Positions 17,066 through 37,701 of a stretch of DNA of 39,195 nucleotides are shown piece after piece; the stretch's first letter is position 1, and every line of letters starts with the position of its first letter. The DNA comes from Escherichia phage JEP4. Where the stretch lies: the sequence record MT740315.1, one strand, 5' to 3'. The notes beneath the pieces are model-generated. The model saw only the letters and a list, made by a program, of their open reading frames with translations, made no database searches and had not been told where the DNA came from. A program made the position numbers and the translations under genes.

Positions 17066-17481
17066 CAATGCCTCACCAAATGGGTGGAATGGCATCGTAA
17101 AACCTACTGTACAAATCAACAATCGTACCGTTTCGGTATGTAACAAATGCTCACCGTAGCCATGCTGCGGCGATTCCTTGTATCTGGAGCAAATTAAATG
17201 ACAGATATTATAAATAGGAATTGTTATTTAATAATGTTTGAAAATAAAAATCATGGACGATAGGAATAAAGGTATTACTTGTTTTTATTTTTGTAAGTGA
17301 CGCATTAAGCGCATAAATAATATGCCTGTTGATCAAGATTCTTGAGTATTGTAAAATAATCGTTTTGTTCATGTTGCATGGTTTTTAAATGAATAGAAGG
17401 TTATTTTTCAAAACAATTGCATCTTTGTCTGCAGTCATTCCGTTTTCTTCAATATCTAAATCTTCAAACAGGATGACTAAT

Positions 17482-19539
17482 ATGCCTGATATAACCCCAA
17501 ATGTTGTAATTGGGATGCCATCGCAACTCTTCACAATGGCTAGCTCTTTTAAAACCGTAGCAAATGGAAAAATTTATATCGGTAAGATTGACACAGATCC
17601 GGTAAATCCAGAAAACCAGATTCCAGTATATCTGGAACGAGAAGATGGTACTTATGTTCAGGTGCCACAGCCAATCGTTATCAATGCTGCTGGATACCCG
17701 GTATACAACGGACAGATTTCCAAATTCGTTACCGTGCAAGGCCATTCTATGGCTGTTTACGATGCATATGGTACGCAGCAGTTCTATTTTCCGAATGTGC
17801 TGAAATACGACCCGGATCAGTTAAGACAAGAGTTAGCAACAGAGGGTAATGAAATACTTGTTGACGACTCCCGTATTGCAGTTAAAAGTGTTCATGTAAA
17901 TTCAAAACTTAGAACACAGCACAATAAAAACGCAGAAATAATCACGCCAAATGATTTTATATCAAATTATGACATGATATCTGCAGCTATTAACTCTGGA
18001 GAGAGTGCCGCAGTATTTAATTCCAGGTATGCATTCACAATAACAGTTGGGGAATATGGTAATTTTAAATCTATTAGTGATGCTCTAAACTCAGCTGTTG
18101 CACTGCGTCCACTATGGAAAAATGGCATTGATTTTTGCATAATTAAAATTCTTTCCGGTTTTGTGCTCAATGAGCAAATAGAAATTTCAGCAGGATGTGA
18201 CTTATCATGGATTAAAATAATATCAGAAGACTCAGTGGTTTTCTCTGATACCAGTTTGTTTACTAAAACTGTTAGGACGTATTACGAATACAAATATTTA
18301 TTTTACATTTGCGATGCAGCAAAAAGTCCTGTATTTGCTATTCAGATTGAAGAAAATAGAGATGATAGCGATGTTTGTGCATTTATTGTAACTCAAAAAG
18401 CTGAACTTAATTTCTATCCGTATTCAGGTGCTCGAAAGTTCTACGTTGGAATTCATGGTAGTTTTGGTGCAAAAATTAGTGCATATCATACCGGATGTGC
18501 TCCTGATGAGGAAAGTGTTGCTGCATATATGCCAGAAGGGTATTACGTATGTGATTTTTCTTATAGCAGATACTCTTCCCTGCAACTGGTAAATAATGTC
18601 AAGGCATCAATGCCTGTAAGCAAGTTTGAACGGTGCACAGAGAGTACGGTTGCGTCAGTTAATTGTATTTATAATGTTAAAGCAGATTTTCAGGGGTCAA
18701 GTGCAAGCTATTGTTATATAGGATGGAATGTAAGAGATGGTTCAAATGTTAATATACGCGACCATAAAACTATACATTGCTCATATCGTGGATTAACCTG
18801 CATTCATACAGCATATGTTGATGCAAGACGACATGACGTTGAAGAAAGTGATGCAGAAACAAGTGGTAAAGTCCTTGAACCAAATATTGAAAAAGGTTTT
18901 TATGGATGTGCACTTGGTGTGCGTATTGATGGTGCGGGTTGTGTTGATGTTGCTGGTAATGATATGCGCAATTGTGGAACAGCCGTTAATGCAGACACTG
19001 GTGCTGTTATTTCAGGAAAAGCTGTAGATATCTCAGGGGCTGAGTTGGGATTTGATTGCCATGCAGGAGCATCTGTTAATTTTCCAAGGCTATGGGGTAC
19101 AGATATAAAAAAATTAATGCACCTCCAAGATGGTGTAAGGTTTAACTCTAATATTTGTCATGTATTTGGTGCAAATCCCACAAAAGATATTAGATGGATT
19201 GATGTAGAGAGATCTGAAGCTTCTTTTATGAATGCAACGCTGGATGCAGATTCAGGATTTATTGCTGACTGTGGTAGTAGGATAACCATTGAAGGAAGTA
19301 AAGTTAAAAACCAAACAATAAGAAGTTTTTTTGGATCACATGTGGCTATAAATAATACTGTTGCTGACAGAACTTATTCAGATATAGCCGATGTTCCGCA
19401 GTTGACTATTAGTGGAGGATCTTTTATTTCTGCTACAGGATATTCTAATTCTGACTCCAGCCCTCTTAGGTTGAGCACAACACGAAATACACTTGGAGTT
19501 GGAGGAGCCATATTTTCAACCAATGGGGAAGTTTCATGA
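17482..19539 (+). CDS. Tailspike protein: P22-family head-binding N-domain plus divergent receptor-binding domain
   Basis: N-terminus MPDITPNVVIGMPSQLFTMASSFKTVANGKIYIGKIDTDPVNPENQIPVY matches the P22 gp9 head-binding domain pattern; remainder is AT-rich and unrelated to my recollection of P22 gp9; ORF-track start 17389 is an extension. Confidence 0.85.
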   Translation: MPDITPNVVIGMPSQLFTMASSFKTVANGKIYIGKIDTDPVNPENQIPVYLEREDGTYVQVPQPIVINAAGYPVYNGQISKFVTVQGHSMAVYDAYGTQQFYFPNVLKYDPDQLRQELATEGNEILVDDSRIAVKSVHVNSKLRTQHNKNAEIITPNDFISNYDMISAAINSGESAAVFNSRYAFTITVGEYGNFKSISDALNSAVALRPLWKNGIDFCIIKILSGFVLNEQIEISAGCDLSWIKIISEDSVVFSDTSLFTKTVRTYYEYKYLFYICDAAKSPVFAIQIEENRDDSDVCAFIVTQKAELNFYPYSGARKFYVGIHGSFGAKISAYHTGCAPDEESVAAYMPEGYYVCDFSYSRYSSLQLVNNVKASMPVSKFERCTESTVASVNCIYNVKADFQGSSASYCYIGWNVRDGSNVNIRDHKTIHCSYRGLTCIHTAYVDARRHDVEESDAETSGKVLEPNIEKGFYGCALGVRIDGAGCVDVAGNDMRNCGTAVNADTGAVISGKAVDISGAELGFDCHAGASVNFPRLWGTDIKKLMHLQDGVRFNSNICHVFGANPTKDIRWIDVERSEASFMNATLDADSGFIADCGSRITIEGSKVKNQTIRSFFGSHVAINNTVADRTYSDIADVPQLTISGGSFISATGYSNSDSSPLRLSTTRNTLGVGGAIFSTNGEVS

Positions 19540-19835
19540 TTAAGAGCATTGATGTCACTCCATTTCTTCACTCGCTTTGCGCTTTTGCGGCTCAGGTACT
19601 GGTTGGTATTTTTACCGGAAACTGGGCTTACGGTGCGATAGCCGGTTGTACGTTCTTCATTGCGCGTGAACACACCCAGGCAGAATATCGCTGGATAGAA
19701 AAGTTTGGGAAAGGGAAACGTGTCAACATGCCGTGGTGGGGAGGTTTTGATCCACGCGTGTGGGATGTGGGAAGTTTGTTGGATTTTTCTTTCCCAATTA
19801 TCGGATGCTTATTGGTATGGATTCTTGCATCGTAG
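19536..19835 (+). CDS. Small membrane protein (99 aa) translationally coupled to tailspike; candidate lysogenic-conversion/superinfection-exclusion moron
   Basis: ATGA overlap with tailspike stop; hydrophobic segments AFAAQVLVGIFTGNWAYGAIAGCTFFIA and FSFPIIGCLLVWILAS; followed by terminator. Confidence 0.6.
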   Translation: MIKSIDVTPFLHSLCAFAAQVLVGIFTGNWAYGAIAGCTFFIAREHTQAEYRWIEKFGKGKRVNMPWWGGFDPRVWDVGSLLDFSFPIIGCLLVWILAS

Positions 19836-19923
19836 CGAACACATAATTACCTATGAGACAAAACTGAGACACACAAAGCTTTGCACTGGATTGCAAGGCT
19901 TTGTGCTCTTCGATAGTGGTTAA

Positions 19924-19943
19924 GGTGGATCACTCCACCTTTT
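19924..19943 (+). terminator. Rho-independent terminator after tailspike-moron unit
   Basis: GGTGGA-tcac-TCCACC followed by TTTT. Confidence 0.55.
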
Positions 19944-20034
19944 CATCAATCCAGTCCGCCCACCATTGCATCATTTCTCTGCGTTTATCGAGATACTGCG
20001 CGTGGTTGTAAATTCAGCAAACGACGTAATGTGT

Positions 20035-20079
20035 TTGACAAAAAATTAGCGCAAGAAGACAAAAAATCACCTTGCGCTA
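20035..20079 (-). terminator. tI/sib-like terminator hairpin downstream of int transcript
   Basis: Perfect 10-bp inverted repeat TTAGCGCAAG...CTTGCGCTAA followed on the minus strand by TTTTTTG; position beyond the attP P arm as in lambda. Confidence 0.6.
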
Positions 20080-20330
20080 ATGCCCTGTCTCAGGTCACTA
20101 ATACTATCTAAGTAGTTGATTTATAGTGACTGGATATGTTGTGTTTTGTCGCATTATGCAGTCTATTTTTTAGACTAAAGATAATGTAATGCATTGATAT
20201 TAATGGTTTTTAATGTTTCACGTTCAGCTTTTTTATACTAAGTAGGCATTATAAAAAAGCATTGCTTATCAATTTGTTGCAACGAACAGGTCACTATCAG
20301 TCAAAATAAAATCATTATTTGATTTCAATT
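20080..20330. other. attP: attP (lambda-type), core GCTTTTTTATACTAA at 20227-20241
   Basis: Lambda common core 15-mer present; P-arm arm-type site CAGGTCACTAATAC and P-prime arm CAGGTCACTATCAGTCAAAATAAAATCATTATTTG adjacent to int. Confidence 0.8.
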
Positions 20331-21385
20331 TTGTCCCACTCCCTGCCTCTGTCATCACGATACTGTGATGCCATGGTGTCCGACTTATGCCCGAGAAGAT
20401 GTTGAGCAAACTTATCGCTTATCTGCTTCTCATAGAGTCTTGCAGACAAACTGCGCAACTCGTGAAAGGTAGGCGGATCCCCTTCGAAGGAAAGACCTGA
20501 TGCTTTTCGTGCGCGCATAAAATACCTTGATACTGTGCCGGATGAAAGCGGTTCACGACGAGTAGATGCAATTATGGTTTCTCCGCCAAGAATCTCTTTG
20601 CATTTATCAAGTGTTTCCTTCATTGATATTCCGAGAGCATCAACATGCAATGTTGTAGGGATGGCAATTTTTACGCCTGTTTTGCTTTGCTCGACGTAAA
20701 GATATCCATCTACGATATCAGACCACTTCATTTCGCATAAATCACCAACTCGCTGCCCGGTAACAACAGCCAGTTCCATTGCAAGTCTTAACCAACATGG
20801 TGATGATTCTGCTGCTTGATAAATTTTCAGGTATTCGTCAGCCGTAAGTCTTGATCTCCTTACCTCTGATTTTGCTGCGCGAGTGGCAGCGACAGGGTTT
20901 GTTGTTATATGGCCTTCAGCTATTGCCTCTCGGAATGCATCGCTCAGTGTTGATCTGATTAACTTGGCTGACGCAGCCTTGCCCTCGTCTATGTATCCAT
21001 TGAGCATTGCCGCAATTTCTTTTGTGGTGATGTCTTCAAGTGGAGCATCAGGCAGACCCCTCCTTATTGCTTTAATTTTGCTCATGTAATTTATGAGTGT
21101 CTTCTGCTTGATTCCTCTGCTGGCGAGGATTTTTTCGTAGCGATCAAGCCATGAATGTAACGTAACAGAATTATCACTGTTGATTCTCGCTGTCAGAGGC
21201 TTGTGTTTGTGTCCTGAAAATAACTCAATGTTGGCCTGTATAGCTTCAGTGATTGCTATCCTCCTGTCTCGGCCTAATCCAAACTCTTTACCCGTCCTTG
21301 GGTCCCTGTAGCAGTAATATCCATTGTTTCTTATATAAAGGTTAGGGGGTAAATCCCGGCGCTCATGACTTCGCCTTCTTCCCAT
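20315..21385 (-). CDS. int: Integrase (tyrosine recombinase), lambda Int-type
   Basis: 356 aa beginning MGRRRSHERRDLPPNLYIRNNGYYCYRDPRTGKEFGLG, matching lambda Int essentially throughout as recalled. Confidence 0.95.
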   Translation of the reverse strand: MGRRRSHERRDLPPNLYIRNNGYYCYRDPRTGKEFGLGRDRRIAITEAIQANIELFSGHKHKPLTARINSDNSVTLHSWLDRYEKILASRGIKQKTLINYMSKIKAIRRGLPDAPLEDITTKEIAAMLNGYIDEGKAASAKLIRSTLSDAFREAIAEGHITTNPVAATRAAKSEVRRSRLTADEYLKIYQAAESSPCWLRLAMELAVVTGQRVGDLCEMKWSDIVDGYLYVEQSKTGVKIAIPTTLHVDALGISMKETLDKCKEILGGETIIASTRREPLSSGTVSRYFMRARKASGLSFEGDPPTFHELRSLSARLYEKQISDKFAQHLLGHKSDTMASQYRDDRGREWDKIEIK

Positions 21386-21581
21386 TTCTGATCCTCTTCA
21401 AAAGGCTACCTGTTACTGGTCGATTTAAGTCAACCTTTACCGCTGATTCGTGGAACAGATACTCTCTTCCATCCTTAACCGGAGGAGGGAATATCCTGCA
21501 TTCGCGCACCCATCGACGAACTGTTTCAAGGCTTCTTGGGCGTCGCTGGCGAGCGTTCCACTCCTGAAGTGTCAAGTACAT
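21363..21581 (-). CDS. xis: Excisionase, lambda Xis-type
   Basis: 72 aa MYLTLQEWNARQRRPRSLETVRRWVRECRIFPPPVKDGREYLF; 23-nt overlap with int as in lambda. Confidence 0.9.
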   Translation of the reverse strand: MYLTLQEWNARQRRPRSLETVRRWVRECRIFPPPVKDGREYLFHESAVKVDLNRPVTGSLLKRIRNGKKAKS

Positions 21582-21620
21582 CGCAAAGTCTCCGCAATTA
21601 CACGCAAGAAAAAACCGCCA

Positions 21621-36453: not shown

Positions 36454-36777
36454 ATGAAGATGACAGAAAAACATGACCTGTTAGCCGCCATTCTCGCGGC
36501 AAAGGAACAAGGCATCGGGGCAATCCTTGCGTTTGCAATGGCGTACCTTCGCGGCAGATATAATGGCGGTGCGTTTACAAAAACAGTAATCGACGCAACG
36601 ATGTGCGCCATTATCGCCTGGTTCATTCGTGACCTTCTCGACTTCGCCGGACTAAGTAGCAATCTCGCTTATATAACGAGCGTGTTCATCGGCTACATCG
36701 GTACTGACTCGATTGGTTCGCTTATCAAACGCTTCGCTGCTAAAAAAGCCGGAGTAGAAGATGGTGGAAATCAATAA
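36454..36777 (+). CDS. S: Holin, lambda S-type (dual start Met1/Met3)
   Basis: [67 protein letters not shown] matches lambda S as recalled. Confidence 0.95.
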
Positions 36778-37237
36778 TCAACGTAAGGCGTTCCTCGATA
36801 TGCTGGCGTGGTCAGAGGGAACTGATAACGGACATCAGAAAACCAGAAATCATGGTTATGACGTCATTGTTGGCGGAGAGCTATTTACTGATTACTCCGA
36901 TCACCCTCGCAAGCTTGTCACGCTAAACCTCAAACTCAAATCAACAGCAGCCGGTCGCTACCAGCTTCTTTCACGCTGGTGGGATGCCTACCGCAAGCAA
37001 CTTGGCCTGAAAGATTTTTCTCCAGAAAGCCAGGATGCTGTAGCGCTGCAGCAGATTAAAGAGCGTGGCGCTTTACCGATGATTGACCGCGGTGATATTC
37101 GTCAGGCAATTGACCGTTGCAGCAATATCTGGGCTTCACTGCCGGGCGCTGGTTATGGTCAGTTCGAGCATAAGGCTGACAGCCTGATTGCAAAATTCAA
37201 AGAAGCAGGCGGAACGGTCAGAGAGATTGAGGTATGA
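36761..37237 (+). CDS. R: Endolysin, lambda R-type lytic transglycosylase
   Basis: [24 protein letters not shown]...; matches lambda R as recalled. Confidence 0.95.
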
Positions 37238-37701
37238 GCAGAGTAACCGCGATTATCTCCGCTCTGATTATCTGCATCATCGTCTGCCTGTCATGGGCTG
37301 TTAATCATTACCGTGATAACGCCATCGCCTATAAAGAACAGCGCGATAACAAGGCCAGTGAACTGGAGAAGGCGAACGCCACCATTACTGACATGCAGCA
37401 GCGCCAGCGTGATGCTGATGCGCTCGATGCTAAATACACGAAGGAGTTAGCTGATGCGAAAGCTGAAAATGATGCTCTTCGGCGCAAGCTTGATAATGGT
37501 GGTCGGGTGTTCGTCAAAGGAAAATGCCCTATGCCATCCTCAGCCGAAACCTCCAGCGCCTCCGGCATGGGCAATGATGCCACCGTCGAACTCTCTCCAG
37601 TTGCTGGACGAAACGTTCTCGGTATCCGGGACGGAATCATCAGCGACCAAACAGCACTGAGAACGCTTCAGGAATACATCAGGACGCAATGCCTTCGATG
37701 A
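37234..37701 (+). CDS. Rz: Spanin inner-membrane subunit Rz (divergent C-terminal half)
   Basis: N-terminus [31 protein letters not shown] as lambda Rz; ATGA overlap with R; contains Rz1 in the +1 frame. Confidence 0.8.
37454..37660 (+). CDS. Rz1: Spanin outer-membrane lipoprotein Rz1 (embedded in Rz)
   Basis: [21 protein letters not shown] lipobox; proline-rich [16 protein letters not shown]. Confidence 0.75.

Follow-up and report, generated by a model that had tools for sequence, protein, structure and literature searches.

What does a small membrane protein do when its gene begins on the very stop codon of a tailspike gene? The question is raised by Escherichia phage JEP4 (sequence record MT740315.1), in which an open reading frame (ORF) for 99 amino acids (aa) at 19536..19835 on the + strand lies between the tailspike gene and the phage attachment site, attP. 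The window referred to below is the whole analysed stretch of 39,195 nucleotides (nt). The ORF is a real gene: it stands beyond chance because it matches phrog_1443 ('unknown function') over its full length (hmmscan E 9.1e-54, residues 5-98 aligned to profile positions 1-94 of 97), has more than 400 homologues of the same length, and gives a ratio of nonsynonymous to synonymous substitution rates (dN/dS) of 0.12-0.3, with dS up to ~1, against 53 distinct E. coli prophage alleles. Its product is predicted to be a three-helix inner-membrane protein. It is a further case of a catalogued but functionally unnamed family, an accessory membrane gene carried beside a receptor-binding gene. As to function, a role in the envelope glycolipids, as an inner-membrane factor for surface-glycan assembly, is the best lead, and we put it forward tentatively. 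This lead rests on two associations, that of phage members with receptor-binding genes and that of cellular members with loci for capsule and 3-deoxy-D-manno-octulosonic acid (Kdo).

The start codon of the gene, ATG at 19536-19538, shares bases with the tailspike stop codon, TGA at 19537-19539, giving an ATGA overlap at 19536..19539 (+) in the context tcATGAtt (gtttcATGAttaag) that is suggestive of translational coupling. The run GGGGAAG at 19525..19531 (+), within the 3' end of the tailspike gene and 4 nt short of the ATG, resembles a Shine-Dalgarno sequence and may act as one. With the two genes overlapping in this way, no space is left for a separate promoter, and a promoter scan of the + strand found no sigma-70-like site between 18208 and 19536. 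Direct reading thus bears out the ATGA overlap described in the original prediction, and its wider picture of a membrane protein coupled to the receptor-binding gene in the tailspike-to-attP slot holds in that the gene is a genuine accessory gene. When 81 E. coli prophage loci were compared, the -4 overlap was confined to the present tailspike type, and the same joint recurs in several IMG/VR prophage loci carrying that type (for example L015, L016, L017 and L023). The first four codons of the small gene (MIKS) are likewise particular to this joint. The opposite strand holds another 99-aa ORF at 19374-19673 (-), which overlaps both genes, the tailspike at its end and the small gene at its start. 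We rejected it as in all likelihood spurious, as the homology and the selection signal belong to the + strand ORF.

The AlphaFold2 model, built from a 40-sequence alignment, has a mean per-residue confidence (pLDDT) of 91.1 and contains three helices, at residues 8-27, 30-58 and 78-98. Helices 1 and 2 form a hairpin, and helix 2 continues beyond the membrane with an amphipathic portion, from which a loop rich in Trp, MPWWGGFD, returns to helix 3. Hydrophobic N- and C-terminal segments had been noticed at the outset. Both are present, the N-terminal one being a helical hairpin in the model and not a single segment. The protein ends in ...WILAS, without a basic tail, and has no lipobox. In a diverse alignment reaching down to 31% identity, H12, R44, E45, E50, W76 and P87 are invariant, and Q48, A49, R52, I54 and R62 are nearly so. 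The invariant positions fall where helix 1 begins, where the membrane portion of helix 2 ends and where helix 3 begins, on one face of the membrane in the model, which suggests a single functional site at the helix ends. The family motif can be written as H12 ... [AG]RExxQAEYRWI ... R-x-x-MPWWGGFD-x-R-x-W ... D-x3-P within ~95-110 aa, and the JEP4 protein has all the invariant columns. Two longer variants of 140-142 aa (P0147 and P0202) carry a loop insertion of ~45 residues between the RExxQAEYRWI helix and MPWWGGFD.

The family is large. Homologues of the 99-aa protein were found by tblastn in 66 phage records, a search of 5.8 billion proteins returned 424 relatives, nearly all of 95-105 aa and every one called 'hypothetical', and an exhaustive profile search yielded ~450 clusters at 50% identity. 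By blastn, 1918 of 5426 complete E. coli genomes are positive, with a median of 2 copies. UniRef attaches the name 'Ybl63' to the exact protein, and CPT_21_24 of phage 21, a 'putative membrane protein', is 77% identical and of the same length. With phrog_1443, 'Ybl63' and CPT_21_24 the JEP4 protein thus shares full membership of one family and the same position after a tail-fibre gene. None of these names conveys a function. Matches in PHROGs are limited to the unknown-function families 1443, 34165 and 9191. The 99-aa protein matches no Pfam family at E <= 1, no PADLOC family at E <= 10 and no PDB sequence at E <= 10 in a profile search, and its single NCBIfam match is at chance level (E 0.15). 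A Pfam scan of 31 diverse family members found no family either; weak matches to PhoR, TctB and Phage_holin_8 were each confined to a single member and were rejected as chance-level. Structure searches with the predicted fold gave generic helical matches only, and our literature search found no paper mentioning phrog_1443 or 'Ybl63'. The initial remark that the protein was not recognised was therefore fair, since no database gives it a functional name. Shorter relatives occur in virulent coliphages of 47 kb and 72 kb, where unannotated ORFs or ORFs of 42-46 aa match the C-terminal half alone (residues ~45-99; phrog_34165). Such ORFs are found in the phage records HC6, ZCEC08, ST1UNAM and PBM-2/3 and in BFVD entry A0A6B9XIW9, and they could represent either truncated remnants or a split version of the family.

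The first of the two associations is with receptor-binding genes. Across Entero-, Aeromonas- and Comamonas-type prophages, the family gene lies directly downstream of a tail fibre or tailspike gene, often overlapping it, and it does so in phages with podovirus-, siphovirus- and myovirus-type tails. A same-strand ORF ends no more than 240 nt upstream in all 81 E. coli prophage loci, the commonest gaps being 10 and 42 nt. When upstream neighbours were collected from 78 species genomes, all the annotated families among the 25 commonest PHROG families were tail or tail fibre families. Downstream neighbours are heterogeneous, comprising the prophage end, att-int, cargo genes or a lysis cassette.

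Several arrangements illustrate this pattern. Among P22-like phages, Gally has a 240-nt gap with a good terminator between tailspike and family gene, and 611R6 has the order tailspike, OafA acetylase, fibre remnant, family gene and convergent integrase. Among lambda-like elements, the gene follows stf and a 92-aa protein in phage 21, stands between the distal fibre gene and a tfa remnant in E. coli B (BL21), and follows GpJ and a 72-aa ORF ahead of a lysis cassette in a Comamonas prophage; in L009, a GpJ-like tail protein is followed by a Peptidase_S74 fibre whose gene overlaps the family gene by 8 nt. A P2-like Aeromonas prophage has a fibre gene overlapping it by 4 nt. The gene sits mid-operon in this P2-like prophage and in Aeromonas phage 4_4512. 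The lambda-type side-tail-fibre loci also contain a recurrent acidic soluble protein of 92-93 aa (phrog_1361/phrog_18574), whose gene immediately precedes that of the distal fibre or the family gene (L001 3710-3988 in phage 21; L006 3995-4276 in BL21).

Presence varies among related phages. The gene is present in HZ41, Gally and 611R6 and absent from the same slot of Kapi1. The Kapi1 ORF hyp24, which was experimentally negative for a change of lipopolysaccharide, was rejected as evidence on this family because it is a different ORF of 34 aa on the other strand. Intrinsic terminators lie between tailspike and family gene in Gally (L002 3789-3809) and in L020 (4950-4969), so the transcriptional arrangement differs among P22-like phages that share the gene. 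In Gally the only promoter match for the gene behind the terminator is at chance level. Where the two genes are parted by a terminator, as in Gally and L020, the family gene may be expressed from the prophage.

The second association is found outside phages. In Alphaproteobacteria, mostly Sphingomonadales but also Aureimonas and Devosia, the gene is carried on chromosomes or plasmids and has no phage genes around it. A Pfam scan of upstream neighbours gave 8 Capsule_synth (KpsS/KpsC-type) and 7 Poly_export genes, and downstream neighbours include genes for NAD-epimerase, KdsA and the CMP-Kdo synthetase KdsB. By phmmer, Kdo or capsule markers lie within 5 kb in 22 of 48 alphaproteobacterial species loci, and a KpsS-like or Poly_export gene stands immediately upstream on the same strand in 13 of the 48, in several distinct arrangements. 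In Porphyrobacter (L175), for instance, the order is KdsA, then, farther on, sulfatase-family, Capsule_synth, the family gene, epimerase, UDP-glucose dehydrogenase and PhyH. On a Novosphingobium pentaromativorans plasmid (L184), Wzx, GT4, GT2, an outer-membrane protein, the family gene and a CsgG-like gene are followed at some remove by PhyH, LpxO-like, KdsA, KdsD and KdsB. Further homologues in capsule loci occur among L126-L169. Phage and cellular members are 45-50% identical and have the invariant residues in common, which argues for one conserved biochemical activity.

We propose, on this genomic evidence, that the protein and the tailspike would both be made from the late, Q-antiterminated transcript, with ribosomes that finish the tailspike restarting on the small ORF at the ATGA overlap. 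Co-expression with the tailspike is the most economical arrangement because no promoter was found and because the overlap and the Shine-Dalgarno-like run point to coupling. At the inner membrane, the protein may then affect how lipid-anchored surface glycans are assembled, exported or modified; a Kdo-linked glycolipid or capsule is the best lead. The result would be an altered receptor layer, the layer that the neighbouring receptor-binding protein recognises, and such a change could curb superinfection or spare progeny from being lost to cell debris. The fixed position may have a second reason, namely that the gene forms the right-hand flank, itself conserved, of the exchangeable receptor-binding cassette. 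A function tied to the cell surface had been anticipated from the coupling to the receptor-binding gene. It gains circumstantial backing from the position beside such genes in three tail morphotypes and from the Kdo and capsule loci of Alphaproteobacteria.

Several observations weigh against a glycolipid function. The protein has no homology to any characterised protein in Pfam, NCBIfam, PADLOC or the PDB sequences. The capsule synteny is restricted to Alphaproteobacteria and could reflect few independent events, and other alphaproteobacterial copies stand in housekeeping contexts, between the genes for a peptidyl-prolyl isomerase and either glutamyl-tRNA synthetase or a DsbA-like protein. In Erythrobacter sp. 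sf7 (L178), the member lies in a P4-like island and overlaps a helicase gene by 4 nt. The family protein is highly conserved beside very diverse receptor-binding proteins and therefore cannot be receptor-specific. In many prophages it is the last gene before the prophage end, and a permissive end of the late operon could by itself explain the position. Topology is a further difficulty. The conserved loop holds about five lysine and arginine residues (5.1), which favours a cytoplasmic loop, although charge counts leave the topology ambiguous, and the very basic C-terminal tails and acidic N-termini of alphaproteobacterial members favour an N-out/C-in arrangement with a periplasmic loop. The island in L178 consists of an integrase, a helix-turn-helix protein, a Toprim primase and an AAA_25 helicase, an architecture like that of P4-type satellites.

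The glycolipid lead also has a more ambitious form. It holds that the family is a hitherto overlooked component, a small enzyme or subunit in the inner membrane, of Kdo-anchored (kps/rkp-type) glycan assembly, which phages in three tail morphotypes have captured and keep tied to their receptor-binding genes; it would remodel the host glycolipid independently of serotype and would at the same time serve as a universal homology flank by which receptor-binding cassettes move between podo-, sipho- and myoviruses. Taken as a whole, we consider this form unlikely.

Could the protein instead exclude superinfecting phages at the inner membrane, blocking DNA entry and leaving surface glycans untouched? 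T4 Imm, P22 SieA and HK97 gp15 act in this way, and like the family of the JEP4 protein they are small, polytopic, phage-encoded inner-membrane proteins. The wide occurrence of the gene in E. coli prophages, in multiple copies kept intact under purifying selection, fits such a role in temperate phages, and in Gally the gene forms a separate unit behind a terminator that could be expressed from the prophage. However, Pfam, PHROGs and PADLOC show no similarity to known exclusion families. An anti-phage blocker would not be expected to have non-phage members in capsule and housekeeping loci that retain its invariant residues, and the Imm, SieA and gp15 families are not known from capsule loci. 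Expression differs too: imm is an early gene and SieA and gp15 are made by the prophage, whereas the JEP4 gene is coupled to a late gene with no promoter found. An exclusion function of this kind is thus an unlikely explanation, if one to be taken seriously.

Next in order is the idea that the gene is a membrane 'passenger' whose function is unrelated to receptor binding, kept as a homology flank for cassette exchange at a late-operon end that tolerates insertions. The structure of the locus bears directly on this. The tailspike gene at 17389..19539 (+) comprises a P22-type head-binding N-terminus and an AT-rich receptor-binding part. Its 716-codon ORF matches Pfam Head_binding at residues 32-144 (E 1.8e-61) and phrog_5662 ('tail fiber protein') over its full length. 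The true start is probably M29 or M32, the listed ORF being too long at its 5' end (17389-17482), because Head_binding begins at residue 32 and MTNMPDITPNVV resembles the N-terminus of P22 gp9. At the ATGA the G+C content steps from 37.6% in the tailspike gene (24.5% at third codon positions) to 47.0% in the small ORF (47% at third positions), close to the window mean of 47.1%. Megablast homology to phages with other receptor-binding proteins starts at ~19548-19563, within codons 5-10 of the small ORF, and phage 434-type sequence starts at 19861, 25 nt past its stop codon. The composition step and the mosaic joints mark the small ORF as backbone-like and the tailspike as the newcomer, with the ATGA as a recombination joint. 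The part of the tailspike that binds the receptor appears to be a recent import, and the small gene forms the conserved right-hand flank, and the head-binding domain the left-hand flank, of an exchangeable receptor-binding cassette.

These joints at the 5' end of the gene and just after its stop codon are what a passenger would show, as are its frequent place at the end of the prophage and its varied downstream neighbours. The substitution ratio given above and the residues held invariant across classes of Proteobacteria, however, show selection on the protein and not merely on the DNA, and the mid-operon positions in the P2-like prophage and in Aeromonas phage 4_4512 do not suit a tolerated insertion at an operon end. 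A pure passenger role therefore appears rather improbable.

An accessory role in lysis, as a holin-like or antiholin-like tuner of its timing, is less probable again and seems very doubtful to us. It is suggested by three helices in ~100 aa, a possible N-out/C-in topology and the basic C-terminal tails of some members, features that recall class I holins such as lambda S and Phage_holin_3_1. One member gives the weak match to Phage_holin_8 (E 0.0036), and the gene lies directly upstream of a holin-endolysin-spanin cassette in metagenomic phage L012 and in the Comamonas prophage. JEP4, though, has its own complete S-R-Rz cassette 17 kb away, at 36454-37701, with a Phage_holin_3_1 holin at 36454-36777, an ORF in the endolysin position that has no Pfam match, and Rz. 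Unlike class I holin genes, the small gene is not beside an endolysin gene but between tailspike and attP. Its product lacks a charged C-terminal tail and has a strongly conserved polar motif atypical of holins, and the cellular homologues in capsule and housekeeping loci count against a lysis function. Finally, a membrane-anchored helper for folding or attachment of the receptor-binding protein would suit a gene located where tail-fibre assembly (tfa) genes usually lie, as between the distal fibre gene and the tfa remnant of BL21, but this is highly improbable, given that the family follows receptor-binding proteins of unrelated folds, including fibres with their own Peptidase_S74 chaperone, that P22-type tailspikes fold unaided, that close P22-like relatives such as Kapi1 do without the gene, and that non-phage members exist.

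The slot itself invites comparison with lysogenic conversion. gtrABC of P22 and oac of Sf6 and Sf101 occupy the same genomic slot, their products are membrane-embedded like the JEP4 protein, and for the JEP4 protein, too, a link to surface polysaccharide is plausible. That the tailspike-att slot serves as a cargo site is supported by phage 611R6, which holds an OafA-type O-antigen acetylase there together with the family gene. The differences are nevertheless considerable. With 99 aa and three helices the JEP4 protein is far smaller and has no sequence relationship to these systems (no match to GtrA, glycosyltransferase or Acyl_transf_3 models in Pfam or NCBIfam). Its gene shares the strand of the late genes and is coupled to the tailspike, no promoter for expression from the prophage was found, and the family extends beyond O-antigen-specific podoviruses. 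Lysogenic conversion, which the original prediction had brought up, fits less well, since a gene coupled to a late gene is more likely to be expressed late in the lytic cycle. The label 'moron' in the strict sense is not supported either: the gene lacks a promoter of its own, with no sigma-70-like site upstream, and in G+C content it equals the phage backbone. Its patchy presence among relatives does agree with the term.

Exclusion genes that adjoin a receptor-binding gene are known, such as llp beside oad/pb5 in T5 and cor beside the tail-fibre genes of phi80, N15 and HK022. Llp and Cor, both outer-membrane lipoproteins, mask a single specific receptor (FhuA) and are matched to the receptor-binding protein. 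The resemblance is that in each case the gene of a small envelope protein adjoins the receptor-binding gene. In contrast, the JEP4 protein is an integral inner-membrane protein without a lipobox and is conserved whatever receptor-binding protein precedes it. Scans of Pfam, NCBIfam, PHROGs and PADLOC showed no similarity to GtrA/B, Oac, Imm, SieA, Cor or HK97 gp15.

Downstream of the small gene, the sequence soon passes into an integration module. Two hairpins follow the stop codon. The first, at 19872..19905 (+) in the segment shared with phage 434, has a perfect 14-bp stem and a 6-nt loop. The second, at 19922..19941 (+), has an 8-bp stem and a 4-nt loop followed by UUCAUC and is a candidate weak intrinsic terminator. 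The region folds at -40.7 kcal/mol (z = -3.9), and none of 200 shuffled sequences was as stable. Of the terminator hairpin first described after the ORF, the stable hairpins thus stand. A terminator role is only plausible, as the U-tracts are weak and a consensus terminator scan called neither hairpin.

What remains of a CPS-53/argW-type integrase gene, its final 27 codons, is found at 19933..20013 (-) (IYNHAQYLDKRREMMQWWADWIDEKVE*), the stop codon lying in the loop of hairpin 2. Of the 27 residues, 25 are shared with the C-terminal end of the integrase of phage 611R6, and the same remnant is found in phage 434, just left of sib/attP. It is the scar of a swap of integration modules and, judging from 611R6, a relic of an earlier order in which the small gene faced a CPS-53/argW-type integrase. 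Beyond it, the lambda-type attP core at 20227..20241 (+) is a unique exact match to GCTTTTTTATACTAA (0 expected by chance) and agrees with the HK97 annotation. The lambda-type integrase gene follows at 20315..21385 (-), with Pfam Phage_integrase and the lambda Arm-DNA-bind_1 domain and 97-98% nt identity to 434 and HK97, and the excisionase gene xis at 21363..21581 (-) (Pfam Exc, E 3.9e-41). The whole block 19861-21600 is 97-98% identical to phages 434 and HK97 and keeps the lambda-type order sib-attP-int-xis, so that attP core, int and xis confirm the placement of the small gene between tailspike and attP.

The family deserves attention for its prevalence, its conservation and the ease with which it can be tested: about a third of complete E. 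coli genomes carry the gene, usually in several copies, and it is annotated there just as 'hypothetical protein'. Whatever its function, it is a marker of the right-hand boundary of an exchangeable receptor-binding cassette and as such is useful for the prediction and engineering of host-range modules. If remodelling of glycolipids proves true, the family would represent a generic, serotype-independent conversion or exclusion function that homology-based surveys of prophage cargo have missed, and its alphaproteobacterial members could point to an as yet unknown component of Kdo-linked capsule assembly.

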